Assembly: GCA_000165425.1 (NCBI GenBank)
Contig: CT867991.1
Coordinates: forward strand, 1-64,000
Length of the DNA: 64,000 bases
Reading direction: 5' to 3'
Source: Paramecium tetraurelia
Lineage: Eukaryota
Of this stretch, positions 10,201-61,525 are shown one piece after another (position 1 is the first letter of the stretch; each line of letters opens with the position of its first letter). The position numbers and the translations under genes were made by a program. The notes below the pieces were generated by a model, which made no database searches, was not told the origin of the DNA, and saw only the letters and a program-made list of their open reading frames with translations.

Positions 10201-13200
10201 ACAACCTGTATATCCACAAAAACTATTTATAATCTTAATATTTTAAAAAAGAATATTATGTTATTTAATCTAATTAATATTTAGAATACTTATTAATCCA
10301 TTTAAACACCTAGTGCAATTGATAGAATGAAAGTCGAAAAATTACGCTTTTATTTTATGATTCTCATTTATATCTTCAATCTGAATTAAGCTAAAATTAT
10401 TATTTTCTCTATCATAAATCTTCTTCAAATTGCATAGATATTATAATTTATGCTAAGAAGTATCTGATTCATTTAAATTTATCGAAAAAGTCAACTTTTC
10501 TTTAGGTTTGCAAATTAATGATTCAGGAAAGTCATAATTTTATGTAGAGCAAGAATTTTCAGAATAATTTTGATAGTTTTCAAATTCGCTTATGTTTAAT
10601 AAAGTTAAATTCCTAAGTGAGATTTCTCCGCTAAGAGCTAGTTATTAGAAATGCATAATTACAATTTTTCAAGCTAATTTTTATCATAGATGCATCAAAA
10701 AAAGAAGAATTTATTACACGAATATTCTCTAAAACAGCGTTGTTAGCATCCTCAATTTGAATTAGGCTTTATATGTGTATTGAATAGAAGTTGCAATCCA
10801 CAATATTAATGTTCCCATATTTTATCATTATTATAGGATTGTTGCTTCGAAGTGAATCAATCTCCAATTCTGTTGGGAATTCTAACTATTTTAAGTATTC
10901 AATAAATCCTATTTAAGTTGAAGTAAAGTATATTTCAGTTAAATTAATATCTAATTTAAAATTTTCCAAATTTAATATGGTATAGGATAGGAATGTATTT
11001 TATATTGAAAAGCAATTAGAAACCTATAAACTCTTCATTGAAATAAAATTATACTAAGATGATGGTATAATATAAAGCCCTCCCCCTTCTCTTCTACTAT
11101 AACACTTTTCAAATATAGTATTAGCTACTATTAATCTTAATGTTGCTAAGTATGCATCAATATATATGCAACCGCCTACTGAATAGGAAGAACTTGATAA
11201 GGATGCTTAAGAATTTGAAAATTATGAATCTTCTATATTTATAGTGCTTGTACCATACGTAATAAAACTAAATCCTCCACCTTAATAAGATTTGGAGTTT
11301 TAGACTATTACTTTATTAATATTAATGTTAGATGCAATTAAAATTCCATTCCCACTTTTTGAATTAATAGGAAAAGCAACTTTTATAGCTTATTCTTTTA
11401 CTTAATTGAATATTAACAGATTTTTACTCAATTAAGAAAAAGTTATAATATTACTATTATAAAAAGATGAGTTCGTTATCATAATAGAGACAGCTTTAAT
11501 TTACATAATCGAATCAGTAGAGTTAGTAACAAGATTATAAATAAAGACTGAATTGGCTATTTAAATTTCTCCTTATTATAAGTAAATAAACAATGTTGAT
11601 GCTGATAATTTAGATGTATCTTAGAAATAAGAATTTAAGTGGTTCTTTTAAAAGGAAACATTGTAAAAAAGTAAAGAGGAATTTTATTCTGATTTAATAG
11701 ATATAAGCGATGTTGCTCCGTTTGCTCTTTTAATTATCAGCATATTTGAATCAAAGATTGAATCCTTAATAATTACATATTAATTTTATGTTTTTTCCAT
11801 CAAATCAAATCCTCTAAATATAATAAATGGATAATCATAGGTTATACTGGAATTCAGGTGTAAATTGTGAATTGTTATATTTTCAAAAAATCCAAAATAC
11901 AAGTAATAAGACAATTAATATTTTGCATAATTATTTGCACAATCTAAAGAAGGATGCAAAGTTTTGAAATAATACTAATCCATTTAAATCAAATAGAATG
12001 TATTAATTTACAAAACTTTAGAATTCATAACTGACATTTCAGGTAATCCATATCCTCTCAAAATCTCAAAATCATTAAAAGTGCAGTACTAGCATTCGAT
12101 ATAAATGCTTGATTGATTATAAAATAATTGAATCGGCATGATGTCATTTGTATATGTGCAATTCTTTAAGTAAAAGAACTCTATTTTTGCATTTAACATG
12201 AATTTTTCTCTTAACCTAATAATTTAGAAAAATGATTATGCTCGGTTATATTATACGTTTTCTCTTTTACACTAAATAACAAATACATTCTCTTATTCAG
12301 ATTTGGATAAATCAGAGATTTAATTTTGGATATTATTACTAAATAATGTACTATCTATTAATTAGAGATCTAATATTTTAATATTTTAGATCTAAATGAT
12401 ATTAGACTAATAGAAGTAAGATTATTAGATAAATTAACTATCAATAATATTTATATTCTAGGTTTAAAAGATAGTTGCTCCAATTATTTAGAAGATAGAT
12501 GATTAATTAGCAACACTAACAAAATTAAGGTAAATATTATCGACAAAAATACTACCACATTCTTCATTTGATTCTCCAATTGTCTTAAATAGAAAAGAAT
12601 TATAAAATTGAGATTTATAAACAGAAACTTCATTTATTATTAAAGAGCTGTTGGTGTTATTTAATTTTGGGTACAAATAAAATAAACTGGAATTTTGAAA
12701 ATTAACATATGTAATTAAAATTCTATTTAAGTAAATTTAACAGTTTTTGGTAACTTAATCAAAAATTGTTGAATTAATTATATTTAGATTTCTAATTTCC
12801 AGATTAGTTAAATTAAGATTTTACATATATGGATTGGTTGCAAATTATTTGATAGAATTTATGACACAATTTCTCAATACAACTTAATTCGCATTAATGA
12901 AATCAAACATAATTGATGTATCAAATTAAATAATTTCAAATGTAATTGATGTAAATCCGATTATATTAAGTGATGTCATTTGCAGTGTGGTTTAATTAGT
13001 GCTTCCAATAATTTTTAGACTAATTGCAACAATTTACTTATAAACATCAAATATTCTAGATTATAAGGTTTAATAATCTTTAATTAAGCATTTCGGCTCA
13101 CTGCCTTAAATCAAAGTAAACTCAAATTCAACTTCCCTTATTTAGCTATCATCTAAATATCGAATGATATCTATTGAAAATAACTCCAAATATTGGAGAG

Positions 13201-16200
13201 AAAATAGATCTTCTATGTAAATGTTGCTTTTCTTAAATTCTACCTATTCAGTTTGATTCTTATTTCTTATTTGAGTTTCAAAGTCCTATTTAGAACAATA
13301 GATATTCTAAGCCAATACTGCTTAATAATAGCAATTTTAATATTCTTTACATTCATATAGATATTTGCTTATTTTAATTTCTTCTTGATTGTTATTGCAT
13401 TGCATACACGTTGCTACGCCATCTATAATTTGGCAATCTGTGCAATCATAATCGCAATCATAAATACATTGATGTTCATACAAAATATAATCGTATGGAC
13501 AAGATGTGCATATTAATTCAAAATCCTCTTCAGATTATAATATTGCATATTCCTCAAAAGGATGCTAATTGTCAGAGTTAAATACATATTTATAATAAGC
13601 TTTGATGTTCCACTTCCAATCATCTTTAAATAATTTATTTCGTTAAATGCAAGTTTTGCAGGAATAATCACACATTTCACATTCTCCTCTTAAAATTGAT
13701 GAATAGTACCCATCTTCGCAGATTATACAAAATGAAGTTTCTTATGAATAATTTTATATGCATTCAACACAATTATACAGATTAGAGCAATCTTTGTTCT
13801 AAATAGATCTCAAATTATTCGAACTGATTAAACAATAATTAGTTTGTTGATTATCAGTGATTAAACCAAAAAGACACAATTCATTTTCATTAAACTCTTC
13901 ATTAGTAAAGTTTATAATTTCACATGTTGAGGTAATTTAATTAAAATAATAATTCCTTTTGCAAAGCGCACAACCTATTTTCAATGTAGAATAATATTTC
14001 TAATCATATTCAAAGTTGACATCTAAAGTAGAATAAATCAAATTTTCTTTAATGTAATAGTGATAGCAATAGATGCAATTTGTAATTTAGCAATGTAAGC
14101 AATTTTAACCATCTATAGCTAAAAAATACACTTCTGGATTATCGCAATAATAGCATTTTCGGTTATTATCACAATTTCCACAATGCTCTCCACAAGGTGA
14201 ACAAATACCATTAGAATTCAAATATGCTCCTATATGACATGAATGACAAATCACAGAATTTTATTACAGTTAGCATTCATTGCAGCCTTGACATACTGTG
14301 CATTGAAATTCTTAATTCAGAAAATAACCAATTTTACAATCAATACAATACTCGTAATTTTTGCAATAGAAGCATCCAACTTAGCAAGGAAGGCACTAAT
14401 TTTCGATATTTTTAAAATAGCCATACTAACAATCTTCTAAATTGGCATTCAATTTCAGCTCCATTTTATTTTAGCTGTTGATTATAACTATATAATTTTC
14501 TATTTCATTGAACAATCTTTATTTTGTAGAGCATGTCCATTCTTATTAAATTCTATCTTCAGTACATTATAAGGAAGATGAAAAATAAGTAGGATTAGAA
14601 ATGCAATTAGAACATTTAATATAATTTCTTGAACTAACCATAGAGTAGCCAGGGCTATGATAATTTATTTTAATACCATTCTAGACAAGTTTAGTTATTA
14701 TACAAAAAATATCCCTAAGCGCATACTTTAGAATTGAGATCACAAAATAGATAACCATTCTGATGACAATATCGTTTTTTTTCTAAAAGTTTTAAAGTTG
14801 GAAAAATGGAAACTACTTATTTACAGATTGATTGATCCTTGGTATCGACAAAATGAATATTGCATGGACATGTATTTTTTTCAGATAATAAAATACGGTT
14901 GCTCTAAGGTGGACAAGTTAAACAATTATTAAAATTAGGGCCATTGCAAGTTTGACAAGAATAATGACATTTTGGTGTAATATTAATGACAGGAGGTGTA
15001 CAATATGTTTTTAATATCAGATCACTAAAATAACCATTCATATAATCCTAAGTATATTTATCACCTCCAAGATAACAACGTAATGTTATTCCACTAAAAT
15101 GAATTATTGGCTATTCCCATACAAATTTTCGAACCTATTATTAGGAAGAAGGGAAGTATATTTAAAATTATGCTGATCTTTCATTATTAATAGTTCCAAT
15201 TTCATATTATATATAATGCCAATTTATTAATAACTATTGATATTCTACTCCAAGAACTTTTTTTATATCTTTAGGTGAGCTTTAATAAACACTTTTTGTT
15301 GGGAATGCATACGAATAGGTAGTAATTTCAAATCCATTTAGAATAGGCTATTAGTCTTATTAATATTTTAAATATAATTCCTTGTCTCCAATTATAAAAT
15401 CATCATTATATTCTTTATTAATAGTAATCCTAAAAATAACCATTTCACGATGTTCCATTTACAATTATTTTATTTTGACCCATCCTTAAATAGTATATAT
15501 TGGAAACTCTAAAATATTTGTTATTTCTGTTGTAAAACTAAATCCTCTATATTCTTAATCATATTAAGTTAATTGGTATGAGTATTCTTTGCATTAAGTT
15601 TCGAATTTACAATGTTGCAGAAATCGATTTAAACTACTTCTATCTTCGAACACATTCAATTCTCTTTCGCTAAATAATTGTGATAGCTTGCCTTAAAACT
15701 ATGACAAAACCAAGGATCCCTAATCTTAATCTAAAATTAAATTTCCTCCAATAGTGTGCTTGACAGTATTAGGCAAAGTGGGTACATCGTTAACTATCAA
15801 AACTTTAGGATCTATATTCTATTCTAATAGGAGAAAAGTTATTGTTGTTGATTTTGACTAATAATTAAAATAAAAGTAAAATAATATCCATTTTCCTTCA
15901 TAATTTACAAAATTAAAGTTGACAGAAATTTTTGATTTTAATGTTTAGAATGAATAATCAATCTCGTGCTTTATTGTTTAAGTTGAAGTCGATATCTCAA
16001 TATAAAAAATTAGAATTGAACTTTTCGATTCAGAGTCTTATAGTGAATAAATAAATAAATATTTCTATTTGTCATTTTTTTATGATGAATAATCCGTTGC
16101 TTTGTAAAATTATTAATACTAATACCTAATGCGGCTCTAAAAGGTTGATACTTCATCCACATACCATACCCTATATTTTAATTTCCTTAAACTATTTGTT

Positions 16201-22378: not shown

Positions 22379-23605
22379 TCATTCATCTGTAGTATCAGTT
22401 TAATCATTGCAACAGCAATACTCTGAAATCACATCTCCGCATGCAGATTCTGCTTCTTAGAGTTCCATTTCATCAAGACCTTCTTGCAAGAACAAGTGCA
22501 AAAATGCTCGCTTTTAGAAAAGTGTCCTGTATTGTTGTTACAATAAATTAAGTTTATTTCCCATAGCAGTATGATGATTGATTGAAAAAGCCATTGGATT
22601 GCATTATTTTTGTTTAGCTGGACAAATGCTGTAGGTGATAGGATCAGCAATCCACTTAACGAATTGTATTTCATCTGAACTTAGAGTCTACTTGAATTCT
22701 TACTGGACTGAAAATATGTCAGTATCCCCATAGATCATGATTTGTTGGGCTAAAAACAAACCCTAAGACATGGACATCGAGAATGTTTGGTTTCGTTTAG
22801 AATAGATCTCTTTACTCATTTGCAATAGAGTTGGCGAATTGATATACGAAAATAGAGGAGCTAGTGACACAGTATAGCAATGCAATTTGGGAAAAGGAGT
22901 GATGTTGGTTTAGATCTTATAAAAGTTTGTATTGGAGTAACAATTGTGACGAAACGATTTGTAGATCCCATCCATTGCAAAAGCTAATAATTGATTGTAC
23001 GTTTCATAATTTTGATCGTAGATGAACATATTCTCTGTCATTTATTGTAAGGCATCATTATCAAAGTAGAATCCCATATTGTAATTGTAATTTAGATGCA
23101 TCAAACCAAGTAGACAATTATAGGGATAAATCACACTATTTTCATATTTTGATGGGTAAATAGAAATGTTGATTTAGGAGCAATCAAAAAAGTTATCGCT
23201 TGTATAATATACTAATTTGGCTCCAATTCCAGATCCAGTTCCACCAGTAATTGAATGAACTAATTACACTGCTTAAATTCCATCGCATTACTCTTACTCT
23301 TTCCTTACCTTTTCCACAATTTCATCAAATAAATCATTCGAACCATAATAACCACTAGCAAATGTCAAACATTTACTACTCTTTCCACTTACAAAATTAT
23401 TTGGATCATAATATGAGAAATTCTTATCTCCTCTAATCTTATCCAGCGTATTCTCCTCACTATCTACAAGTATTGCTCTTGGTATCCCTTTCCGAAAAAA
23501 CTTTTAATCCAAATTCTCACCACAATCGTCTATCATTTGATTCCATATTGCATTCCCTATTTGATTTCCACTTTAACCCACTTAAATTGTAATTATTTAT
23601 TTCAT
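22379..23605 (-). CDS. Highly divergent beta-like tubulin (Paramecium iota/theta-type), 408 aa, intronless
   Basis: MKQIITIQVGQSGNQIG; PRAILVD; HSITGGTGSG; FDNDAL; PFPKLH; KRAFLHLFLQEGLDEMELQEAES. 1,227-nt open frame in the ciliate code. Confidence 0.93.
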
Positions 23606-26659: not shown

Positions 26660-28953
26660 TCACTATTTCCTTTACACTGAACTGAGGGGCCTAACCTTTG
26701 ACAATATTCTATTTTGAGATTCTATAACGACTCTGGTTTAATTGTATTTTCTACTTTCCATATTATATTTTTATTGAGCATCATCACGTTCTTAATGAAA
26801 TCTAAAAAGTTGAAAATATACCTCTTTAAACCTGAGCTATTTGTTATTTGAATTTATCTGAATTTACAGTTATTTAATCTTGAAGTTCTTTGATCATTTC
26901 TCTTAATTTATTTGCATATGCCCTTACAGTACTAAAATCCATGGACATAAAGTTTATAGAATCCAATTAATTGTAATCAATTTCTAAGATAATCTAACTT
27001 TATGATTATCTTAATTATTTGGTAGCTGTTTTAATTGTTTTTTCTATAGTTGATGCCTTTTTAGTCAAGGTAGCTGTAACACTATTAGTTTCTAGAAAAT
27101 GAAATAAGCTGTATATACTAAAGATTATACTTTTTATGTTTGACTTTATTTGGCAGATTAGGTTTGTCTTATTTAGGGATACTAAACGACTTTAATCCTC
27201 CACTATATCCTCCTGTTTCAATTTTATCAATTACTTTTCCTTGTTTGGTAATAATATCGTATAAATCTAATAATTCTTCAACAATTTCATTAATTTAGGA
27301 TCTATAAAATATACAAGAGGATACTTCTTTTTCTCTCTGTATTTCTTGAATTAAATAAGAAAGTTTTCAATTTCTTAGACTTTAGCGCTTAGCTTTTACT
27401 CATACTAAAATTTATAATGATCCAATGATTTATAATATTCAGCTTTAATAATCTCTAGACCTTTATTAAATTCCTTTTCAATTTCTGTTTTGATTTACTT
27501 TTTCAATTCTTGAAGCTTTTGATTTTCAACATTTTTTGTCTAAGCTGTTTAAGGAAGATTGAGAATAGAAGCAACTTTGTCTTCTAGTAGGTTTTTAGAT
27601 TCATCTTGTAATTTTTTAATAAATTAATCTCTATCTTAAGATAACAATCGAATTGCATCATCTCCACTCATTTTAGACAATTATAATTAGTCTTTCAATT
27701 TTTTATTAATTTCTTTTTGTTCCAAGACTTGTTATTAATATCTTTCCAATTTAGTATGGGTATCCTTTTTCAAATCTTCAATATCCTTCTTTAATTGCGC
27801 ATTTTCATAATAATATTCTTCGATTTATTATGACAAACTGACATTTTTTAATAAAGCTTCTTATTGGTTTTTGAAGATGGTGACATCCTTTGCATTTTTA
27901 GCAGAGAGCCTTTCTAAGTCAATATCCAACCCTAAAAGTCTTTGTAACTCTAGAAATCTCTTCTTTCTATCAGCATTTAATTATTCAACTTTAATTTTAT
28001 ATTCTTCAATTTCATCTTTCAATTTCTTGATTTCTTTCTCTTATTATATGTTAACCTAAGAATCAAAGCCTAACATAGATTATTATTTTTTAATCGTAGC
28101 CTATATATTTTTCGTTCGATCTAAATATTGAAGTGTCAATAAACATTCCTCATAATTTGATTAACTAGGATTAATTGTTCCAATTAACACAACCTGTGTG
28201 TTATTTTCAATTATTAATGCTGAGGTTAATTTGGATTCTTTTTTTGGTAATATTTTATTTGGATTTTGATTGAAAGAATTTAAGCAGCGATTAAGTACTT
28301 AATGACTAGCAGTAATCAAGATAGCTTCCTAAAATTTTTCGCCTTCAGTTATATTTTTTGCGACCCTTTCAGATCCTGCTAAATCTACAAACTATAACTT
28401 AGTATTGGAATTGATCTCCAATGTGAGTATAATATGAGTTCTCATTTATCTTTTGATATCAGTGCTTCTTAGAATTTTGATCATATCCCAAAAATCATTG
28501 ATTAACAATATTTATCGCTTTGTGAATTCCTCTGTGATCAAATTTGTATTTAAATCTCTTATTTAATTCACATAGATCTCTTGAAATGACACCTAAACAT
28601 TCAATCCTTTTTGGAGTATCTATTAAATCAATAGAGGAACGATTCCTGGATGTTGAACATTTCCAAATAAGGAGTAACTTTTACCACCACCGGATTGTCC
28701 ATAAGATATTATACATCCATTCTTATTCTCATAATCAAAATTAAAGACACTTTCGAACAATTCCTATTATGTTGAGGAGGATGGGAAAATCTTGTCATAA
28801 CGATATTATTGCCATTCAGCCTATTTATATGTTGGATCCTGCCATTATTTTCATTACAAATACCTTAATAGAGATAACATTCTAATCTATACTTAGCATA
28901 GATTGATCATATTCAATTGGTCTCACTCTCAAATAAACTTTATAATTATTCAT
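26660..28953 (-). CDS. Divergent kinesin (N-terminal motor, long coiled-coil stalk)
   Basis: KVYLRVRP; YDKIF; P-loop YGQSGGGKSYSL; SFQEIY; switch II FVDLAGSER; KESKLT; INPS..YEECLLTLQY; then coiled coil; TGA 26662-26660. Confidence 0.9.
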
Positions 28954-45130: not shown

Positions 45131-45347
45131 AATTTTATAGAAGCAGGCCAAGAATAATATTTTTTATTCAATTGTTTCAATTGTTAGATCTTTGATTTAG
45201 GAAAACAATGAGAATTTAAATAATTATTAAAGTACAGAAATATACAAATTTATACAAATTTATAAAAAACTCCTAAGTTGTTAATTCATTAGCTCACTAT
45301 AAAAAATTACAAATTTATAATGTCTGTAAGGTAAAAATTTATATTAT

Positions 45348-48300
45348 TCATTCATTCTATCTCAATCTGATGACACTCACATTGCAGCTTACATTACTAA
45401 CACTCTTATTTATATCTTATACTGGATGTACTTGGCAATAGCTTGGTTCTTTGAGCAATTTTTTATATTTGCAATACAAGTTGATGGAGCAAGCTGAGAC
45501 GCTTATGAATGCAGCTGCCAAGATAATAATCACAATAGTCATGATTGTAAATTGTTCCGTAGTTAAAGTATCTGAAATACAAGAAGAATCAGATAGTGAA
45601 TATCCGATCTTACAAGTGGTGCAAATATCTGGAGCTGTGCAGTCCTCGCAATCATCAGGACACTTTGGCTCACAAAGTTTAGTAGATATATTTCTAAAGT
45701 AGCCTTCGGAACATTCAGTTTCAATACAAGCTTCATTGTTATTTAATTGATAGCCATTCTTGCAGATCTAACATGTCCAAGGGATTTCACAAGAATCACA
45801 GAATGCGCCACAATCCATAATGCACTAGTTGTTTTTGTTCAAATAGAAGCCGTATTAGCATTTCAAACAAACCAGAGGTGATTGACAACTTTGACATTAA
45901 TAACTACAAAGATCAGATGAGGAAGATGAATCTGTAATCAAGGTTCCATACTTATTGTATTTTTACATAAAAATGCCATCCCCTAGAATAGTTCCATCAG
46001 AATCAATATTTTTGGCTGTCCAAGTCACAGCAAATTGATTCTCATTGATAATTTGTATTCTTGGGGTTTGAGGATAAATGCCTTCGATTTACACTTCAAT
46101 GATTTGGCTACTGGACACACCCATAGAATCGAAGATCTAAAATTCAATTCCAATTGATTTATAATTGGAGTCAGTGATCTTCCAGGCAACTATAAATCCA
46201 TCATTAAATGATTAGATATCTGGAGTCAAGGAAGCAATCTAGATGTCACCAACACTCTTAACCTCACTTCTTGTCTTTAGATCCTTAGATATTAATTAGT
46301 AATTCAAGATGAATTGAGGTTAGGATAACTATAGGTTTTTGTTTTCCCATAAAAACACCATGATTCCATTAGCTAAGTTAGTAACTCTTAAGTTGATGGA
46401 ATTAGAGTCGGCAATTGCTTTTGGAGAATCAATCAGGTCTCCATCTTCAGTGATTTATTGAACAAAGACATAGCCATCACTTTAGTAGGTTAAGGAGATT
46501 ATTCCATTTTCATCGGCTACAATAGATGGAGCAGCTAATTAGTTAACCTTTTTAATTTCTTGAACTGATGTCTTACTATTCATGAGTGAGTCATATGATG
46601 AAATGAACATGGAGAAATCATTAGATACTTTATCGCTTTTGGCCATATAAGCAATCAATAAAGAATTGTTTGGAGTCTTTTTAATTTGACAAGGTATTTT
46701 AATGTCTTGTAAATCTGTTTTTTGATGAGTTCCCAATAGAATATCTTGGCTTTAAGCAGTCCCATCAGAGGAAAACTTCTTCAATTTAACGTCGGTTGAG
46801 GCTGAAGAAGCATCCATCCAAGTAACAAAGAATTCATAATCAATCGAAATTATGTCTGCATAAAAGTTTTGGATGATGGATTGCTGACTTAACAATCTTC
46901 TGGCATTTCCAGTAACTTTCATTGGGTCTCCAACTTTGACATTATCAACAGAATACAATTAGAAATAGACACCAGCATTATCTCCATTTTAGTACCACAT
47001 AAGAATGTAGCTGCCATCAGGGAAGGTAGCCATAAGGGGTGTTCCCACAGTTGTATTTTTGATTTAATCTAGAATGGATGAATTTTCTTATTGGCACTTT
47101 TTGTCGGATGTAACTACATAGCCGAAAGCACAAGTTTAGCATTCAAGAGGAACACTGCATTGACTGCAATTAGCAGGACAATGAGGAAGACATTTTTAAT
47201 TATCAGTGCTGAGATAGTAATTATCATCACACACTTTACAATAGGTTGTTGTCGTAGTGGTGGTGTCTTCTAAACATTGTGCACAATTACTAACACAAAT
47301 AATTTTAACGCATTGTCCATTTACTAATTTGTATCCGATGTTACAAGCGTCACAAACTGCAAAACTAGTACATTGATTACAATTGTCTTGACATGTCAAT
47401 TTACATTTGCTGTTAGTATCCAGTTAGTAATTTTGACTGCATTATTCACAGTAATAGGAGTTGATACACTTATCGCAATTAGCTATGCAGTTCTTATTTG
47501 TGCTCCAAAATGGAATATTACCGAATTAATCATATTGTTTGTAATAAATGGTCACTTTTTATGACTCTGGTGGAAGACTTTATTAGTATATTCTTTACTC
47601 CTGGTAAATTATGTATCCGTTTGAAGTTTGCTTATAGAATCGCTTCTGCCATCCTTTATTGAATAAAACAAATTGTGGCTCCCCAATTTTCATACCTGCA
47701 TTGTCGAATCTCTAAGAATATATTTCAATATTTTCATAGTTATGGTAGTTAGGCTTTTCAATTATTATTGTGAATGAATCTTAGAAGGCAAATAGCTGAG
47801 CAAATTGCTGATTGGAGAATTTGTTCTCCAACACCAAAGCCTCAGTTGTTAAGGGTATATCTTAGCTATCAAGTATTCTGTAATACACCTAATAGTTGGA
47901 TTCAATTTCATTGCTACTATAATACTTAAGATTTTGGGTTCCTGAAATAATTTAAATCTTATTGCCATTAGATAGTTAGTAAATGTCACAAGAATTGTAG
48001 TGGAATATTTCTGAATACAGACAAACTTATTTGGTTTGTTAAATGGTTAGGGAATTAGAAAATGTATATCTTTCATCTTTTTTAGATAACATGATCGAAT
48101 CCTTGATTCTGTTAAAATCATACCAGCCTTAACTGCAATCAAATATTTATTCTTTTTGAATCACATTAAATGATTCATCATACAACACTCTAAACACTCC
48201 AAAGAATATCTTGTAATAGATCAGAGAATATTGATTAATGCCAATTGGATTCAAAATGATATTCCAAATGTTGATGTTTGTATCAATGGTTTCAATTCTC

Positions 48301-51300
48301 AAAAGAGTGTTTAAGACTTCCTCTTGTTGGGCATTATACTTTATGATCTTAATACCATCATTCATATGGAACAGCAAGTAATAATTCTCTTCAATGTAAA
48401 ATGGATATATGGAGTAATAATTGGTTGTTAATGTGTTAGTTTAAACCGAAATCTGCTTAATCAAATCATTGTTTTAGTAAATGTATAGAGTGAATATCTC
48501 TTTTTATTGATCAAATAAGGTTTGCTAGGTGTAAAGGATTGTTTATCCATTAGGCAATACATTCAAATCAATGAGATTATTTAAGAACGGATAACTCAGC
48601 AGAACTTGGGGTTCTTGATAATTGACTGGAATTGGTGAGCATTTTCCTTGTACTCTCTAATAGTATCCATCATAACAAATTTCACAAATCTTTGGAATCA
48701 AACATACGAGGCAGTTACTTTCACATTATGGCATACATTATTGATCCTACAGTAAATATTAGTTCAAACATTGTGAACAAGTGTTTTAAGTAGCACATGA
48801 TCTACAATCTCTAGAACAAACGATCTAATCTATTGGAACTATTTTTGGTTCCTTAGATAATCTTTAAATATAGATGTTCTAGTTAACAGAATTGATCGTA
48901 TATTAATTATCATTTTATGAAGGAGCATTACAATAAATGAAATACTGATCAGCATTGATATTTGATAACACATACAATTTTGTTTGATAGGCAACGAATT
49001 ATTATTAGAAGTTGAATCCGAATGGCAGCAATTCAGTCACTTACCAGTTGATATCAATATAAAATTAACGATATAAAGCTAAATCCATGCTTTCAGATAG
49101 AATCAATAATGCCCCATCATTTAAACTGAAGAAATCTATCATTTAGAAGTAAGCATATTTCTAGTATTGGTTAAAAGAGTTGTATGCCACAAAGATTGGA
49201 TTACCAACTGGAGAGAACTGATTGTTGTAAAATTGTACTTTGACTTTCTATGATTCAGATACTTAGATGATACTAGCCAAAGCAAAGTAATGAGAAATGC
49301 TAATCAATTTAAATTGATTAATTTGATCATTATCCCAACCTTACAATTCTTAATCAGACAACAGGACTCCCTCTTGTGAGTAAATGCATACACTATATCT
49401 AAATCCAGTATTTTAATATAGAATAGCTAATTCAGTTGTTGTCACAGCCACTTCCAAACTCTAATACTATTTCTAATTCAATATTTATGTTTAGATAATT
49501 AGATTACTGGCAGAATCATAGAATTGTAAGTTGATTTGATTAATAGACAACCATATAATAACAAATCCACCGTTTTTCAGACTTACTATCTTATTGATGA
49601 AATAACTGTTCAATTAGAAATTCTCTAGATGGAAAATAGTAAACAATTGTTCATTTCCTATAACATCTAGATGATTATTAAATCTTATTCCTTTAATCAT
49701 GGCTTCCTTTTCTGGATTACCTTCAATAAATGTGATGATTGCTGTGTCATCCTCTAACACTGCCACTTATGGACTATGTTATGCACCAAAGACACTTTGA
49801 CTCACTCTAAAATTGTTGCCAACCTTCTGACCCTGATTATTTAACAATTAAGCAAACACTCCCCAACTATCCTCATCTTCATTGTTACTTGACCATGACA
49901 TCAAAATTGAACCATCTTTAAACTTAGCTGCACTTGGCGTAACTTAACTAAATTATGTAAACTCATTGATCTAAATGGCCTTATTTTCGAATTCATTCCA
50001 TATGCAAACTCCATCTATGCCAACATAATACTATGATTTGCATCTCATGCATCTTCCAAAATCACAAATCTCACAGAAAGGGTCACATTTTTTTTAACAT
50101 ATGCTATAAAACGATGTTTCATCCTTATAATAGGTCATTAGATTATATCCATCTTGACATTACGAACAATCTGATGAATCATTGCATTGCAAACAATTCT
50201 AAGGACAAACAACATGTTTGAATGGAGTGAATTCTCCAGTTTTATCTAATAGAGAATATGATAAGGTCCATTGTTATTGATTACTCCAAACACTCCAAAC
50301 CAAACAAACAATTTGATTGTCTAATTCAGTCAACAATGGTAGTGAACTATATTGTCCGTTAATATAATTAGATTTGATCTTGGTTCCCTATCTATCTAAC
50401 ACCACAAACTCGACTATTGATTATTTGTTCTTCTGACTCCAAGCTATAACAATATTTGAATTTGTTGTCACCATGCTGACACTTAAATCTCCTCTGAGAT
50501 AATTATCCAAATTAAATAGGGTCTAAAATTGAGTATTCATGATCCTTAGGTTCCAAGCTTATGTTCCAATTTATTTGAAAAGAATTACAATCTCAGAATC
50601 TAAAGTAAATTCAATCTATTCTATATTTGGTATGTCCAATGGAACCTCACCATAATTTTAACCTAAATAATTCAGTGCAATCATTCTTAATTGTGTCTAA
50701 CTGATAATTATTGTATAGAGGATGTCACCAAAAATGTAAAGGTTATTTATTTTATTGATATTGCAATCTCCATATGTTAGAGGTGTTGGATTATTGAAAT
50801 TGACTTTAGAATCTATTAGTAAATTGGATTAATCATAAAAGTAGAGGGATTGAGTTAAGCATTGCATGTATGCGAAATCAAAATAATAATTATCGTATGA
50901 AGTAACTAGAATAACGTAGCTTGATGAAAAGGCTTTGATAGTGGCAGAGGTAATTTGATATGGAAGTTAATTGGTAAAAAGTAATTTAAATGATTTGAGT
51001 GTCTCAAAGTAGTAATAAACCTAATAACTTTAAGGCTCTAAAACGGTGACTATTATAATATAAATTTGATCTTTGACAATAGCAGCATCCAGAGATAGGA
51101 TCTAGGCGTTTACATTGAAATCAGAAACCAGTAATTCCTTTCCTTAGGCGTTGAATCTTTAAAATCTCACAAAATCATAAGCCTAATATATCAAAGCAAA
51201 TTCATTATTTGAGAATTTTAGCACCTTCTTTCTTATTTCCTAATAAAATTGCTTATCAATAGTATATCTCACTTTTTCATCAATAGTTGGATCTTAAACG

Positions 51301-54300
51301 AGTGCTACACAACGCCCATCAAAACTAAAGAACATTCCATCCTTGCAAACATCACAATTAGAATTCTCACATGATTGGCAACCCTCAATAGTACAGATTT
51401 TCTAGCATAATAAAGTTTGTTCATTCCTATTGTATCCAGGTTTACAGATGTTGCATGTAGATTCCTAGTAGCATAACTCGCAATTTTAAGGACAAACGAT
51501 TTAAATTGCACTTTAAGACTCTCCGAATTAATCAAATCTTGCTAGTCTTATATAGGGTTTGTTAGTATATGTAGTAGGTTCGAATTACTATCCAGAAAAG
51601 AGAATAATTATGTCTGTATTCTAAAGCTAGAATAGCCCATAGATTCCATATTCTAAGGCTTTGATATTAACTTAGATTTCTCTTTTTACTTGTCCATCAA
51701 TACTAAAAGTTGTCAACTATAAACTGCGGATATTTTGTTCATCATAAGAAAAGATCACTAATTCGCTGTTTTGATTGAGAAAAATTTAAAGAGGTAGTGA
51801 CATTTATTAAATTATAGGGCTAGATTTAATTAATTATGCCTTGTCTATGATATTTATTTAAGATTTTGTCAGCACTATGAATTATTTTTAATCATTAATA
51901 GTCATTTTTATGTATTGTGCATCATTTATTTGAATATCCTTGATAAACCTTAGTTATTTATCATAAACTTTTATCACAGTGCATGATTAATAATTAACGT
52001 TGCACTACCATTCTACATAGCCATAGAGAATATACTCTCCGTTGGATATAAATTCAAATTAGTCATTGGTTGGGATTGCAACATTTCCTATCAATTAACT
52101 AAGATCAGATGTATAAACACTAAATAGTACAGTGCGCTCTACTTTTACAGCAACTCCAATTAAAGTATTTTATAGATTTTTCAGAATAAATGTTGAAGAA
52201 GAATACGAATTACCATTCAAATATGTTATTCTTCTATCCCCAATTCTGTTGAATTGGTCGTCAAATTATTCAACTACGTAATACAAATAGTAATTCTAGT
52301 ATTAACTACCTACAATATAAGCATAGGTCAAAACATCTTTATCATCAATCATCACTTAAAAATGAAGAATGGTTTGATCAAAAGGAACCTGAGGGTCTTG
52401 AGTTATTTCAGTAATCATCTAATTATCCTTAAGTAATGTGCCGTCTGAACTGACGACTCTAATTCCAATAGATTTGTCTGTATTTTTTTGAGTCACAATT
52501 ACAGTACCATTTTTATAACTTGCCACCTTATAACTGTCATATGAATATAAATTGATCAATAGAAAATCTATTTCCACATTTTATTTTATTTCATTGCATT
52601 AATTGTATCTGTTCCTATAAAATCCATCCAAACAATTTTAACAATCAGTTTTATAGTTTTTGCACTACGCTTACTTAATAATGCAATTTCCCAATTAATT
52701 TAGTATATATTTATCTTCATCGTAGCACTTTATGCATTTACCTAGGTTTGTGCACTCTTAGCATCCATTTGAGCATCTGTATTAACTAAAATCTAAGATC
52801 TCACCTATTTAATTTAACTTAATAGCAGAAATGGCATTTGATTTAGCTTAGAAATTATAAGAAATCCATCCAATCACAATATCTTAATTTGACAATTAAA
52901 TTATTTGCAAATAGTTATCTACTCCTTGTTTAACAAAACTATCTGAATTCAGCTATTATGGATTAGTAATTTTCTTATAGTCTTCTTTGGATATTAAAAC
53001 AGTTTTGTAAATTGTATTAGCTGTCATGTCTCCTTTGTAAGAACCTTCTCTCCAAATAACTGCAATTGAATCACTCAACATATGGGTCTTTAGATCAAGC
53101 TTATAAAATTCTGAACTAGTCGACAATTTCTTGGGTTCAAATAAATTGTTGTTATTGGCCTTTACCACATAAAACACTTCATATTTAGAATAACTAATCT
53201 CAGTCCACACTTCAAGGAATGACCCATCTTCCAATTCCATTAACTTGAATTCTACCTAAGTGTTGTCATTCTTCTTAGTAATAGTTTTTACTAGATTGCC
53301 AAAGAAATCATAGATCTTGTAAATGTATCTTATTTCTGATTTTTGAACATTTTCAATGCATATTTTAATGTAATTGCCTACAATTTAAACATCAATTGAT
53401 TGTGAAGATGATTATTATTCCATTTAAAGAACTAATATTGATTATTATTGAAATGAGATATCAATGCCTCCATTTTGGCCAGTAATCTTGATAAACTTCA
53501 TATATAACTATGTGGAGGTTTTTTAATCTTATTATACTTAATAGATCATTGCTATTTTATTATTTCCCAGGTGTTTCAAAATTAAAAACTAAACAGTTGA
53601 AGTTGATAATTAGTTTATCTATTACATTCTTTGAATAAGTAGTGTTTCTTTTTCATCATAAACCTTAAGTTGTATTTCTTATTCCCTGAAATTCTAATAA
53701 ACAATTATAAAGTAATTATTTTCGATCTCACATGCATCAAATACTACCATTTAAAGTCTCCCTACATCTTAATTTTATTTTGCTACATAATATTATTTGC
53801 CATATTGATCAAACTTTTAGAACATCAATTTATCCTACTCCTACCAGATGAATAACATGTCACTATTTGTAAATTTGACAATAGCAAACTTGGAAGTGAT
53901 ATCTTTTACGAATTCAACATTGAGTTATTTTAATTTACTTACTTAGAAACAGATGTTTTGAGTCAACTAATATTCTGCTTCACAAGTTTGGCAAACCAAT
54001 TCCACACTATTTGCTAAATATGCTGTACAATGAGGAATTGATGAAACACAGGCTTTATTGTTAAGAACATAATCCTTCTGACAGACTTAACAAACATCAC
54101 TTTCATTGCATTATAAGCAATTCTAGGGGCAAACAACAGTATCCATAGGTAATTAAAGTCCTTCACTGTTATATCTCTTCATGTATAAATCATCCTAAAA
54201 GCTGGCTTCTTATAACAAACTCAGAGTCCATGAAACCAGGAATTCACCTTATGGCAACTATGTTAATTAAGGATGATGGGGATATAGATTCCATTCATTG

Positions 54301-57300
54301 TAAACATCTATGATCTGGGTAATTTAAAATCCATCTAGATTAAATAGTTACATTTTAAGATTTCTTAAATCACTCATCATTGCATGTCTATTTTCAAAGA
54401 TGATGGCAAATCCTTTGAGTGTAGCCAGAACATCAGGATTATTCAAGTTATGGTCTGGAATTATGATCTAATTACTAAATTCCCAGGTGTTCAAGTCGTT
54501 AGTGTATTTTCTATACATAATGCTTTGACTCATGAAATCATTGCTATTAATAAAGGTTTCTCTCCATGCAATAATGAATTTATTATCACTTAGAACACCT
54601 ATTGTAGGAGCTTGACCATTTTCTGATAGGATCTATTAACTAATATAAACATAATTAAGACTAAATTTGCTTGCTATGATTCCAAAATCTGATTGCCATA
54701 CAATTACAATTATTTGATCATTTGATGCAACAACAGGTTCAGAATTTATGATAGATTCTTATTTGTTCAAGACAAAGAAACCTTATTATTTATCTTGTAA
54801 ATCATAAAAGACTACATGAAGTTTCTCTACAATTCTATTTGATTCCACATAATTTTGGGTCCACACAATTACGTATCCATTCACTATAGATTATATCATA
54901 ATTGGTGTATCAAATCGTTATGCATGCTTTAATTAAACATTTTCCTTGACTATGATTTCATCGCCAACTCTAACAAAGTCTTTTGTAAATCTTTGAAGTT
55001 TGATCTTAGCTTACACTTATAAATCTCCTTCAATCCAAACTGCACAAAACTAGTCATTGTCTAAAGCCTAAACATCAGGATAGATTTGAATTCCCGCAAA
55101 TGATAAGCTAATTCTCTTCTCTTCCAATATTTTCTTACCATGTGCATTGAACATAGACATAAACACACCTGTTCCTTGATTTTCATAGTATTGTCTATAC
55201 CAAACAGTTACATAGTCACCATTCTTAAATGTGGTAATCCTTTATTTACTCTACAAGACATAAGCATTCATTTTCATTTCTTTGTATCTCTAATCGTCTA
55301 ATTAGCATACATGATCACTAGTCAATTTGTATCCTAAATCGCATACTTCACAGATTCCGTCGGTGCCATCAATACAATGCTAAGGCAAATCTAATTCACA
55401 TTCATTTTCAAACAAATAATATCCCTATCTACACAATACACATTCCTATTTAATATTCCTTTAGAAGCAATTACTTACAGGTGATGATGATTGTTAGGCT
55501 TCTAAATAGAATAATTACTATGATGAACCAACAAAACCTGAAAAGATTACAATTAATGAGTTTGGCTATTTATAAATCCTGTAGCCATAATCAAATGTAT
55601 ATTATGATAAAGCATTTCCAATCGCAAAATCCTCAAGTTGTAGATTTTAGTAAGAATAGTCAATGTTTAAGAATTTATATCTAATTCTATACTAACCACT
55701 AAATTCTTAATAGACAAACGATAAGAAATATCCATAGTAATTTTATGAATTAGAAGCAGCCAATTGAGTAATTTGCTAAACACTTTTTAACAGATTGGTA
55801 TAAGAACCTCTAGCGTTTAAATTTTGATCAAACCATTAATAATATAAGTAGTTATACGATATATAAAGACTGATTTCTTCCTGTTCAACCCAATTAATGA
55901 CACTACCATAATAATATGAATTTGCAACAGCCAACGATGTGATTGGTCTTTTAGATGTATAAAGTACTTTATAAGTGTTCGTAGAACCATCCACTGTCAG
56001 TGAATTTATTATCAAATTATTTTTAACGTATATTATCTAATAATAACCACTCTAAATTATTAAAGTAGCAAATGAGGAAGCATCATTTTCATTTTAGTTT
56101 ATGTTAGACTTAAGTGAAAAACCATTAGTCATACTGTATTCCCCTACCATTGTTTAGCTCATATCATTTAAATCTAATTCTGTCCATAATAATAGCATAT
56201 TGTTGTTATACTTTTGTATTTGCAAATTAAATTTACTAACTTTCACCTTCATTATTCTCAATTCATATGGGTTGGAAAGAACTTACAAATCTTTTTAGAA
56301 TAATTGTAACATGAGTCTGCATTAGATTTAACAATTTCCACTCAACCAAATTAAGGCAATTTGATTCTCTTCATATAAATACAAATAATGATAAGCAATT
56401 TCCTGATCTTGACTTAAGAGATTTTAATCTTATAATAAACTAGTCTGAGTTTGATACTTTATGTTGATATTTATCTTGTATTGTGAATTTTCATATTTTT
56501 GATATGAATAAATTGTGGTTTCGTCTGAAAAGGTTATTATTGATGGTAAACCATAACAGGAGTCCTTACATATTGGGGTTTCCAATTGAAGGTCTGAAAG
56601 ACTTCTGCATTTCTGATCAATGAATTTTGAGTTACCATTACAATAATCACAGGTATAGGGTTGTTTACAAGAAAAACAATTTTCAGCACATATTGGCTCA
56701 CATTTCTTAGTTTATTCATTCTATTGATAATCAGAAGCACACTGAGTACAAATTAAATTACTATCGCAAATCTCACAATTAGTATTGCATGTCTATTCAA
56801 CAAAAGGAATAGTGTTCAATTCGGAGTTAAGTCGAACTTTGAATATTCTATTATTAGTGAAGGATGACCAAGTTAAATAAAGCAAATCGTCATATGATGA
56901 AGTTGATAATCCTTAAATAATCAGTTCGTTGTGATATAATGATCTTGATGTTAATTGTTCTCCATTTAATGAGTATTTTATGACCTATATATTCATATTA
57001 CTAGTAGTTGTTGATTGCTCCGTGTAAATGAAATAAATGAACTTAGGCTATAATACTATTTAAAAGTTATTTAATTATTTTTAGGACTCAATTGTGTGTT
57101 CTTATTATAATTCTTGATTTTAATTGTAAAATTTCACTTTGACTAAATTTGAATTCACTTTCTCATAGGACACAATCCAAATAAAAAAGTCATTAAAGTA
57201 ATATTCAAATTTCTCTTATGTATCCAACCAAAAATAGTCCAACACCTCATTTACATACATTACCTTGAAAGTTTCTATGTTATCTTCGGTGTAAAGATAT

Positions 57301-60300
57301 GATGCAGTTAGTTTTTACAATTCTAAGTTTTTCATAATTTATATGTTTCTAACTTTTTATTATTTATCTATTCTAGTTAAATAACGGCCTTAGGTTTTGG
57401 AAAGTTGGGGATTTCCAGATTGACTCATAGAATATTAGTCATATTTTAAAACAATATATTCTCCTTCCCAATAACTATAATGATAATAACTGTACAAAAT
57501 ATGGATTTTGTTATCATCAGTTGAAATGAAATCTAAAATATCCTCATTACCATATAATTCCCCTTATGTTGAAAAGCTATTAATGGAAATATATTCGTTG
57601 TTTAAGATAACAAATTATCCAACATTTTGTTAATTTTGGTTTCTCATTATGTATTAGATTACAATCTAATCATTAACCTTAAGAACTTTAGGACGATTGA
57701 ATAAGACAATATCTTAATCACTTGAAATCCTAATTTCTCCAGATTTTGATTATCCTTATCTATTTTAAGCTTCAAAAACAATATCGTACCTTGAACTATT
57801 TTTCTTTAATGAAACCTATAGAATTTAATCATCATATGAAGCAATATAAGTTAGAATTAAATTATCCTAATAATAGATATCTTATTCCTATGTTTGATCG
57901 CATAGTAAGTTTTCATTCAAATAGAACCCATTAGAACATTACAAGCATTAGTTTTCAGTTTCGCATAGTTCACAGTTGTTTTCACAAGTCAAAACACATT
58001 TTCCATTTTACAATTGATATTTTGTATTTTTGCACTCTAAACATATTCCCTGATCTGTGCAAGAATTACAACTTTATGTACATACCAATTCCTTAAAATT
58101 AGTCAATTGTGCTGTCTATAAATTCACAATTTAAGTAAAAACTTGACTTACAGGATTTTGGAGTTCTACATTAGAAAAACCTATCCAAGCTAGAACAGCA
58201 TATGATTATCCAAATCTTGAGGATGAAACCTTTTTGATGTTTCTGCTGGATTAAGTGGCCTACAATACTTGAAGTGGATTAGTTGAAGTGAAATTTATGT
58301 AGATTTATTTATTGAGATATTCATCATAATCAAATTTGATGATTGCTGAATCATAGCTATTCAACAATTTATTATCAAATGTTAAACCTGTTGTAGTTAT
58401 AAAAGTTAATTAAACTTACTCTATTTTATATTAATAAAGATAATTTTGATTGGTAAAGTTGAAATATAGACTATTCTAGCTGACTTAAATATCGAAACTT
58501 CTGATGATATAGATATCTTAATAAACAGTCTAACTGCTATATACTCCTTAATCATCTATTTTTAGAAAAGAAAGTGAATAGTATTATTGATTATTGTCAT
58601 TTACTTTTTAAACCACATAAAAATAGTAGACATCTGAGTTTTTAAGTTGAGCAATCCTTATCGAAATCAATTTTTATTATTGGATATCAATAGTTTTTTA
58701 CTATAGAACCTACATTGTTTCAAAATCATATTGATAATCTATTATTTGAACGATGGAATCTACAGTAAGCCAGTTGATTATGACGCGGAATTATTACATG
58801 TCATCTACAGAGAAGATATCAAAATCAATTATTTCATTTGGTTGTTGTTCAATTTGAATTTATTTGATTAGGGCTCCTTAGCTATTAAGCCTTTTCAAAA
58901 CAAGTTTTGTTTGTTTGTTATTTTCAATTAAGCTATACAATATTAGAATTTCATTATCCTTTACTGAGACTTTAATTTGTCCTTTTTGCTGTTATTCATC
59001 GCTTATCCTTAATTCATTAATTATATTTTAAGGAGTGACGCAAAGGTTTTCAGGTGTGTATTAAAATCCAGTTTTACATTTTATGCAATAAGAAGGTTCG
59101 CTGCAGGTATCGCAATTGTCAGGACATTTTGGAACACACTCGTTTTTCACACTTACAAAGGTGTATCCATCTTAACAGGTTAAGCATTTAAATTGTGGAT
59201 CACATAATTTGCAATTTGGTTTACATTCATTTTGTTTAACATTCATGTCTATCTTTATAGTACTCAACTCATATATATAGTTATTATAACTCAACCATTT
59301 AATTGAGAATCTATTAAAACCTAGTTAATCTATTCTTTGATGGTATGTTTAGGTCCAAAAATATGGTTTTATTATTTTTCTATTCTATTTTATATTAAAG
59401 CTGTTGTTTGATAAATCATACTAAGTGTAACATAGAGAATCATATCCCTATGAAAATAAAAATAAATCATATTCTTATTGAAACAGTGATTTTCTTAATT
59501 AATAATTCTCGCAAGAATTAGGTCCTGAATTGGTTATTTTATTAAGTTTCCAATTAAAATCTCGGTCAAAAAGAGTAAATGCAAAGTCCATATCGTATTA
59601 GCAAATGATAAATTCACCATTAGGTAAAGCAACAATATTAATAGTTCCATAATCTTCATTAAAATAATAGTTTGTGGGGAGTGATATTACATTAGAAATC
59701 TAATCATCTTCAATTTTTGTTATACTAATAACTTATTTAAAGAGTTGTACTATTCCAATAGTTCCTAAGAGATTTTGGGCTATAGCTATATCATAACTAT
59801 CTGGAAAAGTCAGAGCTTGAGATGGTTTATCTGATTTAGCATCATATTTAATGTAGTTCCATTAATATTGATTCACTGTTTAACCAATAGATTTCCAAAT
59901 TATAGAGAAAGCAGTATTGTTTAATGGAGTAAGATCAATATATTTCTTTTTTGTATCAAATTTAGCAGCCTCTAAGGAATCTCCGAATGAGTACTCAACC
60001 TATTGTTCTACTAAGTTTAGGTCGTATTTCTTCAAGCCTAATTTAACAATACTTAAATTTTGACTGACATAGACAACATAAATGAAGTTATTAATAAGAA
60101 TTATTTAAGGTTGATAATTTTCCAAATTAGAGTTCCCAACTTGTACTTTTTTGATTAATTCATTTTTATAAATGTCTAAGAGGCCTAATTCAATTTAATA
60201 TTTAGATTCATAAGTTCTAAAATGTTTAGTAAATATAAGTGTTTGTTCGTCTAAAGAAATAGTCTTTGTGCTCCAGTCGAGTGAAACATCTTAAATTTTT

Positions 60301-60377
60301 ATTTAATATAGCTCCACTTCGTTTGTATCAGCACCTAGAGCGTAAAATAAAAGGGTAGTTAACAGAGTAAAAATCAT
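45348..60377 (-). CDS. Giant 5,009-aa type-I membrane protein: ~11 beta-propeller-like modules alternating with Cys-rich (furin/EGF-like) spacers
   Basis: Signal peptide MIFTLLTTLLFYALGA. The span is 15,030 nt = 5,010 codons. Five supplied minus-strand ORF fragments (starting at 46736, 46958, 47399, 48377, 53240) all share the frame of the ATG. C-terminal TM TIMTIVIIILAAAFISVSACSINLYC followed by a short tail. Confidence 0.9.
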
Positions 60378-61099
60378 GTCTAAAAAATCTTTTAAAAAAA
60401 ATAGTTAAAGAAATTAATAAATCCCCAGAAATTATTATCCCTTTTTAAATGTAGACTGAGAGTATCTACTAATTATAGAATAAATTTAATTCTAATATGT
60501 TGTGGCTTTTTTTAACACAAACACAAACGATGCAAAAGTATAAATTTATATTAACAATAATCATTCATAATCTCACATGAGGGACAAGAAGATGACATTA
60601 AAATAATATATAATATAAGTCTCTTATTGTAGTATTGTTGTGGCCAAAAGTTGGCACTGCTTTTTAATCAATAAATATTAATGTAGAATTGTTTTTTAAT
60701 ATCAAATTCAAATAAAATTATGTGAAAAATAAAGGCAAAGTATAAAAGTCACCACTACCTTGAAGTATTCTAACCATACGTAGCTGTGAAGAGATTTTCA
60801 GAAAGATTGAAAATTATTTAAAAAGGAATAAAATTATGTAACAGAAATAATTAAATCATTTTTGGGGAGGAGAGGAGTAGGTAATCTAATTAACGATTAC
60901 TCTATCTGTTTGAATAATTAGAAAAAAGTGTTCGGTTAGATTATTAATAGATCGTAGACATATTAATAATAATGACTTTTATTAATTCTTACAGTTGGTT
61001 TAATATAATTTAAATAATAAAACAAAAAGGATGAACATTTTTAATATTGAATGAAGCAGAGTTTGGGGAAGTGAATTTGAAAAATAATCAACGATAAAA

Positions 61100-61525
61100 A
61101 AGATTCACATAGGATTTTGAATGTTTTTTAGTTTTTCTTGCCTTTTCTTGCTTCTTTCTCCACCATCTTTGAATTCTAATAGCACATTATCTCTCCTGAA
61201 GGGTAAAAACGGAATTATCGATTTTTAATAAGAGATTTCGATTTTATAAATTATAAGTAAACATAGGCCTGTTGTTTCCACAAACTTGATATTATTATTT
61301 ATTAATCCAATAATTGGATGCACTATTCATCAATCCACCAAACTCTGAAATAGGCTTAAATAGATGTTAACAAATTGATACCATCATACAAGCTGTTCTT
61401 CGATAAGAACCTTGGCTTCTAGTTTCTTCTAGGTGTTGATAAAAGGCAAACTCTGCTAAATCTGCCTCACTTTTTGTAGTTTTGTCTCTCTCCCGAGAAC
61501 AAAGAGCCCCGCATGCAAGACCCAT
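61100..61525 (-). CDS. Small hypothetical protein with an N-terminal MGxxC acylation-like motif (3' end uncertain)
   Basis: MGLACGALCSRERDKTTKSEADLAEFAFYQHLEE..; a possible 27-nt intron; downstream sequence loses coding character. Confidence 0.4.

Follow-up and report, generated by a model that had tools for sequence, protein, structure and literature searches.

A 15-kb intronless gene of Paramecium tetraurelia encodes a candidate many-headed membrane receptor with predicted propellers, at least three of them related to a bacterial 55-residue repeat

The window analyzed here, that is, the whole stretch of 64,000 nucleotides (nt) from contig CT867991.1 of the Paramecium tetraurelia assembly GCA_000165425.1, carries on its minus strand, at 45348..60377, the whole intronless coding sequence of a 5,009-amino acid (aa) type I membrane protein, P0001, which is the subject of this study. 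Translation with NCBI table 6 yielded a single open reading frame (ORF) of 5,009 codons, in which the sole TGA was the terminal stop; one frame over 15 kb under this code was what the original prediction, made from the sequence alone, had proposed. TAA and TAG accounted for 312 of the 484 Gln codons, and the G+C content of third codon positions (GC3) was 27.7%.

RNA-seq contigs from run X7 tiled positions 45327-60359, with no gaps among the seven pieces listed (eight more exist); the segments 55694-55756, 57563-57741, and 59069-59322 lie outside these seven. Depth in the same run was zero in the intergenic bin 60401-61050, upstream of the gene. A 27-nt intron in the neighboring gene at 61355 was removed in the RNA, and the library therefore does report splicing. 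Poly-A RNA from three stranded runs of a single study, 3'-biased and thin over the 5' half, showed no splice joints in the gene; this RNA was mainly minus-strand over the gene, and its level was low, at ~1-3 reads per kilobase per million (RPKM). All 10 candidate in-frame GTA..TAG introns of 21-33 nt lay within ungapped RNA contigs, and no insertion of at least 6 aa unique to P0001 was found against three orthologs. The gene is transcribed unspliced, as had been supposed. Hidden introns, or several genes within 45348..60377, were rejected given the one ORF, the ungapped RNA contigs, and the comparison with the orthologs. The lack of introns had been called odd. That view was not upheld, because most Paramecium surface-antigen genes (mean 6.6 kb) are intronless, against 2.9 introns in the average gene (available part of PMC4235209), and because two paralogs, on contigs C54 and C435, are likewise open frames of 5,307 and 5,333 codons (~16 kb).

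P0001 begins with a probable signal peptide (aa 1-16, 60330..60377, minus strand as are all features below), read by eye and kept in the orthologs. It is followed by exactly 11 Cys-poor modules of 319-395 aa, where about 11 of ~310-390 aa had been expected, and by 11 Cys clusters at the places predicted for them, near 59.1 to 45.7 kb. Cys makes up 3.4% of the protein and is confined to the spacers, which matched VSP when the two halves of P0001 were searched with Pfam. Nine clusters are paired units with 8-14 Cys. The first of these (59040..59225) consists of two furin/VSP-type CxxC units, as judged from Cys spacing and Pfam, and Cys spacing placed like two-unit spacers at 57900-58082, 56556-56789, 55305-55469, 53949-54131, 52596-52775, 51309-51494, 50004-50207, and 48639-48818. 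A four-unit spacer with 24 Cys precedes module 11 (47094..47489) and is the same in all paralogs covering the region; a membrane-proximal stalk with 20 Cys, about three units by their spacing, follows it (45579..45908). The predicted single transmembrane (TM) helix and tail of ~40 aa were borne out by hydropathy (peak 2.7), with the helix at about aa 4944-4969 (45471..45548) and a 40-aa cytoplasmic tail at 45351..45470, in which a motif scan found no NPxY and a YKKL kept in orthologs only.

Structure models were built for four of the 11 modules. The AlphaFold2 model of module 11 (45909..47093), the membrane-proximal and most conserved module, had a predicted local distance difference test score (pLDDT) of 87.9 and a predicted template modeling score (pTM) of 0.88, with 27 strands in seven blades. 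The best match in a fold search was the seven-bladed propeller of CylK (PDB 7ron; Z 32.5, root-mean-square deviation 3.1, 349 residues), followed by the lectin PLL (Z 27.9). Module 1 (59226..60329), modeled from ciliate sequences only, matched seven-bladed propellers. Module 2 (319 aa, 58083..59039), modeled in the same way, had six-bladed propellers of sialidase type as its top matches (Z ~20). Module 3 (56790..57899) was all-beta in a low-confidence model and is a putative propeller from this model and from profile-profile comparison. The alignment behind the models of modules 1-3 was ciliate-only, with 8 rows, and the modeling had a mean pLDDT of 62. The propeller fold of the original prediction was thus modeled clearly for modules 1, 2, and 11 and partly for module 3.

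The nearest solved folds of module 11 are thus CylK, in which a seven-bladed propeller is likewise coupled with an RTX-like domain, and the seven-bladed lectins PLL, PHL, and BP39L. Both relationships are distant, with 8-12% identity and no sequence link between our profiles and either CylK or PLL (CylK was unmatched at E<=10). CylK is moreover a single-propeller enzyme and PLL a soluble symmetric lectin, and P0001 has no RTX repeats, unlike the alkylating enzymes CylK and BrtB, in which an N-terminal Ca-binding beta-roll packs on the propeller. It is highly improbable, in our judgment, that some modules are enzymatic, as glycoside hydrolase, lyase, or CylK-like propellers acting on prey polysaccharides. 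The fold neighbors do include CylK, sialidases, and lyases, but identity to them was 7-14%, CylK gave no sequence match, G, P, W, aromatic residues, and blade-motif Q made up most of the positions invariant across lineages, among which no catalytic cluster was seen by eye, and the active site of CylK requires a second domain (available part of PMC8916777).

The blades had been likened to a repeat of large secreted bacterial RTX or adhesin proteins. A blade hidden Markov model (HMM) from one bacterial protein scored modules 5, 9, and 11 at 80.7, 58.1, and 44.4 bits, and none of 2,200 shuffles exceeded 7.2; overall, HMM scores of these modules ranged from 44 to 103 bits, with shuffle maxima of 6-7. 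Profile-profile alignment with hhalign gave them probabilities of 99.1-99.7 against the bacterial family, the reversed control staying below 0.2. Module 5 (54132..55304; 99.7) is the best-preserved bacterial-type propeller. Module 9 (48819..50003; 99.1) contains the blades cited at ~49750-49975, which we located at aa 3468-3544, about 49746-49976. On this sequence comparison, modules 5, 9, and 11 are shown to be homologous to the bacterial 55-aa repeat. The likeness was moderate for module 10 (47490..48638; probability 74, 15.8 bits against a shuffle maximum of 6.0) and indirect for modules 1 and 4, linked through the C54 and C435 paralogs; module 4 (55470..56555) is a putative propeller through this profile-profile link. 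It was weak for modules 2 and 3 and for the putative propellers of module 6 (52776..53948; HMM and profile-profile), module 7 (51495..52595; profile-profile), and module 8 (50208..51308; profile-profile).

With a profile built solely on 17 Paramecium modules, we obtained matches to 33,060 cluster representatives at E<=1e-3 (clusters at 50% identity). The best 150 matches resemble giant prokaryotic secreted proteins; 50 of the 150 carried at least three RTX-like repeats, and only one had five or more CxxC. The bacterial repeat has a period of 55 aa, and 351 of 738 runs held exactly seven blades and 22 more held multiples of seven (152 proteins). With the center genome counted each time, 24 of 301 Pseudomonadota genomes and 44 of 151 Planctomycetota genomes contained it; it was also found on 39 plasmids, with products annotated as calcium-binding, Ig-like, or cadherin-like protein. 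Several propellers of the repeat stand in one chain in a 5,877-codon ORF of Kiloniella majae, and short Cys linkers separate such propellers in P0005, from the metagenome-assembled genome of a member of the Desulfobulbaceae. Four unnamed metagenome proteins (P0104, P0115, P0138, and P0147), possibly from host-associated bacteria, combine symmetric 55-aa-repeat propellers with a C-terminal TM helix and a short tail; P0104 and P0115 have RRLL upstream of the propeller repeats.

Pfam and NCBIfam gave no match above the curated cut-off on the 11 modules and only scattered unrelated matches on the bacterial modules (CopC, for example, matched 14 of 61 rows). Sequence searches of PDB with the propeller profiles returned nothing convincing (best E 0.0055, a partial match to an endo-arabinase). 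No description of the Paramecium family or of the bacterial repeat was found in the literature searched, which lay outside most subscription journals and all supplements; the available part of PMC9218822 makes no mention of Paramecium, ciliates, or RTX, and PMC9788069 held nothing relevant. The analysis also brings to light a family of bacterial propellers that is very large (33,060 clusters) and has no Pfam or NCBIfam model and, judged by sequence, no member with a solved structure.

The giant proteins of planctomycetes and the bacterial giant proteins of RTX/type I secretion type share with P0001 the same blade, in the same start and end register, and several propellers per chain. They differ in that their blades are near-symmetric with motifs kept, their partner domains are RTX, Ig, or cadherin, and they usually have no TM anchor. 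Identity between blades was 12-25% within Paramecium modules, compared to a bacterial median of 42%, and QD[GS] occurred 0.3-0.4 times per Paramecium module and 2.8 times per bacterial one. Judged by these sequences, the Paramecium blades have lost the seven-fold symmetry of the bacterial ones. The data suggest that the propeller was probably transferred from bacteria into an ancestor of Paramecium in which the three paralog lineages had not yet split, because every named relative outside Paramecium is bacterial and the more symmetric form is the one found in bacteria.

A word-based protein search returned only Paramecium orthologs and three bacterial proteins, missing the own-genome paralogs as well, and two further protein searches gave one match each, one of them limited to 694-2,000 aa. 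A metagenome scan with module-11 patterns left one locus from 222 pattern matches, and these searches together do not amount to absence of the propeller from other eukaryotes. It is doubtful, although conceivable, that the domain is an old eukaryotic or alveolate one with bacterial relatives, or that it came by way of a virus or symbiont and not directly from bacterium to ciliate. The best full-length identity between Paramecium and bacterial modules was only 21-28%, the gene is fully host-adapted (its GC3 and its 312 TAA or TAG Gln codons), and a marine metagenome contig joins the family propeller to other propeller types and Cys motifs. On that contig, L038:3-6086 is an open frame of more than 2,000 aa with an FG-GAP propeller, an RCC1 propeller, two family propellers, and small Cys motifs, and it may be bacterial, viral, or eukaryotic. 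Set against such an origin are the bacterial identity of all named matches outside Paramecium and of the Atlas neighbors with recorded taxa, and the symmetric state kept by the bacterial copies. No viral relatives of the propeller were found in two IMG/VR scans or GenBank phages, and the fold matches in BFVD were generic propellers.

Orthologs of 5,004-5,031 aa were found in P. octaurelia, P. primaurelia, P. pentaurelia, and P. sonneborni, and the three aligned to P0001 were 83, 71, and 62% identical. Together with the genetic code, these orthologs assign the window to the P. aurelia group. Module identity to the P. octaurelia ortholog spanned 59% to 97%: modules 1, 2, 7, and 6 were at 68, 59, 59, and 77%, and modules 5, 9, 10, and 11 at 92-97% (96% in module 5). 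Modules 1, 2, and 7 are fast-evolving. When the same genome was searched with modules 5, 9, and 11, at least four related genes were detected (C54, C435, C105, and C153+C509). The C54 and C435 paralogs have the same plan of 11 modules, the 24-Cys and 20-Cys clusters, and a TM helix, at 20-36% identity per module. The earlier view that the duplication of the modules is old was upheld.

The other two genes, G000:C105:8233-24542 and C153:4607-13802 plus C509:1-10278, form a pair with ~14 modules, which we read from their sequences as the outcome of a duplication of modules 8-10. Both copies are frameshifted, for which assembly error and decay are both possible. Their relationship is a mosaic, with modules 3-5 98-100% identical, 8a and 11 at 95%, and 6 and 9a-10b at 50-69%, between flanks that are 96-99% identical; gene conversion, module swapping, or two haplotypes are the candidate explanations. 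Two remnants on small contigs, close together (G000:C211:10-682 and C245:704-1048), have 68-82% DNA identity to two parts of the window gene, its start and its module 11, and are, from this similarity, probably a decayed copy from a whole-genome duplication.

Module 11 contains the motif RRLL (aa 4493-4496, 46890..46901), located by alignment and model in a loop of low pLDDT that forms an 8-15-aa insertion between blades 1 and 2. None of the other modules compared with it, 11 from ciliates and 8 from bacteria, has this insertion. Of 14 family sequences and fragments, the nine that extend over module 11 each had exactly one RRLL, at the same place, and the five fragments lacking the module had none, with a chance expectation of 0.003-0.027 per sequence. 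No other invariant run in module 11 is as long, and the loop around RRLL is otherwise gapped and variable. RRLL is also a site for site-1 protease. A profile search of the genome for subtilase (PF00082) gave no match, in line with the available part of PMC4142616, and a domain search for MBTPS1 was silent, as was its control, the genetic code and introns lowering the sensitivity of both searches. A1 aspartyl-protease matches in the genome numbered 78; for two of the eight fetched proteins, which were run against PDB, plasmepsin V was the sole match (E ~1e-28, cut-off E<=1e-10). These plasmepsin V/ASP5-like ORFs are L132 (G000:C369:61319-62806, with a C-terminal TM segment) and L133 (C191:257309-258952).

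In the Golgi, Toxoplasma ASP5 cleaves proteins at RRLxx, including at sites close to C-termini (available part of PMC6212819). P0001 has the same motif as these TEXEL substrates, likewise near the C-terminus before a TM segment, as in GRA46; it differs from them in that the motif lies inside a predicted folded propeller of a free-living ciliate. A cut after RRL would yield chains of ~522 kDa and ~57 kDa. LRP1 is cut by furin within its last propeller, B8, into chains of 515 and 85 kDa (PMC13403279, a modeling paper, and the available part of PMC8469001). By analogy, we propose the RRLL loop as a new candidate ASP5/plasmepsin V-type cleavage site, placed like the furin site of LRP1.

The likeness to LRP1, LRP1B, and megalin extends to the whole layout of a giant type I membrane protein in which propellers alternate with Cys-rich repeats above a short tail, and to the predicted chain sizes. 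P0001 nevertheless fails the tests of membership in the LDL-receptor family. Neither half matched LDLa in Pfam (E<=0.05), and the spacers are CxxC-spaced and of furin/VSP type; no YWTD or EGF match was found in Pfam, and the predicted propellers are mostly seven-bladed and of the bacterial family; NPxY is lacking, and the candidate site is of ASP5 type. The resemblance is analogy, not homology. Of the LRP/megalin-like multi-ligand receptor that had been suggested, the LRP-like layout stood; a megalin-like endocytic role finds no support in the tail, which has no NPxY and no motif shared with paralogs.

We give an even chance to P0001 being an expressed, single-pass, many-headed ligand-binding receptor of the cell surface or food-vacuole membrane that is processed at the candidate RRLL site. 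The protein would enter the secretory pathway, where a plasmepsin V/ASP5-type aspartyl protease would cut it C-terminal to RRL, within the loop that separates the first two blades of propeller 11. The cut halves would share one propeller, so the ~522-kDa chain would stay clasped to the ~57-kDa membrane chain, and it could be shed, as in LRP1. The Cys spacers would hold the propellers outward like beads. With decay of the seven-fold symmetric bacterial sites, each propeller may have specialized: the conserved propellers 5, 9, and 11 may serve a fixed or structural partner, and the fast-evolving propellers 1, 2, 6, and 7 may bind variable external ligands such as microbial surfaces.

The same topology would suit an internal receptor that sorts or carries cargo along the secretory and endolysosomal route, similar to sortilin or CI-MPR, with trichocyst or lysosomal cargo as examples. 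Low expression is consistent with this, as are a YxxPhi-like YKKL in four of the four orthologs checked, with YCQV in two, and the reliance of Tetrahymena granule biogenesis on sortilin receptors (available part of PMC3824020). We regard it as unlikely, however, given that the tail motifs are not kept in the paralogs, that the outer modules evolve fast and fit external ligands better, and that Pfam found no Vps10 or MPR family match in either half of the protein.

Somewhat less likely still is a role in structure or protection, as a coat or tether without specific ligands, such as a glycocalyx, a ciliary or oral-apparatus filament, or a shed mucus component. The size, VSP-like Cys repeats, and possible shedding site of P0001 would fit a coat, and Paramecium surface antigens (PF01508) and Giardia VSP are likewise Cys-rich surface proteins whose genes are long and mostly lack introns (available part of PMC4235209 for the former). 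P0001 departs from the surface antigens in having no match to PF01508, whose eight-Cys periodicity runs the whole length of those proteins, in confining its Cys to the spacers, and in bearing a TM helix and tail in place of a glycosylphosphatidylinositol (GPI) anchor, for which it has no signal; its transcript level of ~1-3 RPKM is far under that of a coat protein, and constraint varies strongly among modules.

Several points weigh against the proposed receptor and the bacterial origin of its propellers. The hhalign probability of modules 2, 3, 6, 7, and 8 to the bacterial family was below 12. Folding covered modules 1-3 and 11, and the alignment behind the module 11 model comprised 61 rows, 45 of them non-ciliate, a composition that favors the bacterial fold. 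In a quick LG+G4 tree of 87 rows (16 ciliate modules and 71 non-ciliate modules picked from 392), all the ciliate modules fell to one side of a single branch (SH-aLRT 100), and no bacterial sister group emerged; branches were long and composition was skewed, so that the tree names no donor and no direction. In the representative library, Paramecium proteins that score 957-1,411 bits are missing from the best 150 (cut-off 536), so that it cannot speak for ciliates. The ratio of nonsynonymous to synonymous substitution rates (dN/dS) between the close paralogs C105 and C153/C509 reached 0.74 and was always <1, with no sign of positive selection. Invariant columns make up 55 of the 395 in module 11, and the chance of a run of four somewhere is ~0.15; sharing of RRLL by descent shows constraint, not cutting. 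NPxY was absent from all four cytoplasmic tails scanned, and the tails are wholly different between paralogs, with no shared endocytic motif. The ligand, location, and cleavage of P0001 are inferred from sequence, models, and analogy.

Other genes were observed in the window. A large split gene at 7273-16200 on the minus strand encodes a protein that is rich in Cys, has several TM segments toward its C-terminus, and gave no Pfam match at 1e-5; its extracellular part contains RQLQQ, an RxLxQ motif like PEXEL, and it resembles the cysteine-repeat modular proteins. A WD40 gene at 1-1464 on the plus strand, truncated by the contig start, contains near-identical 126-nt repeats (up to 90% DNA identity). 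A divergent tubulin gene and a kinesin gene lie on the minus strand at 22379-23605 and 26784-28484, respectively.

To our knowledge, the molecular basis by which ciliates recognize food, symbionts, and parasites is largely open, and the genes described here form a small family with a receptor-like build that can be tested by RNA interference (RNAi). If RRLL is cut, cleavage of a last propeller would have evolved on two occasions, once in animal LRP1 and once in ciliates, the domains and the proteases being unrelated, and a free-living alveolate would be seen to have a substrate for plasmepsin V/ASP5-type processing. More tentatively, and with doubt prevailing, P0001 may be an independent look-alike of LRP1, in which a bacterial adhesin propeller was multiplied 11-14 times on ciliate Cys rods, an ASP5-type cleavage loop was added to the last one, leaving the ectodomain clasped to its membrane stub yet releasable, and the outer propellers became a diversifying, module-swapping repertoire for the recognition of prey or parasitic bacteria. 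If true, this would put the family forward as candidate receptors by which ciliates detect prey and symbionts, and would provide a free-living counterpart of PEXEL/TEXEL processing.

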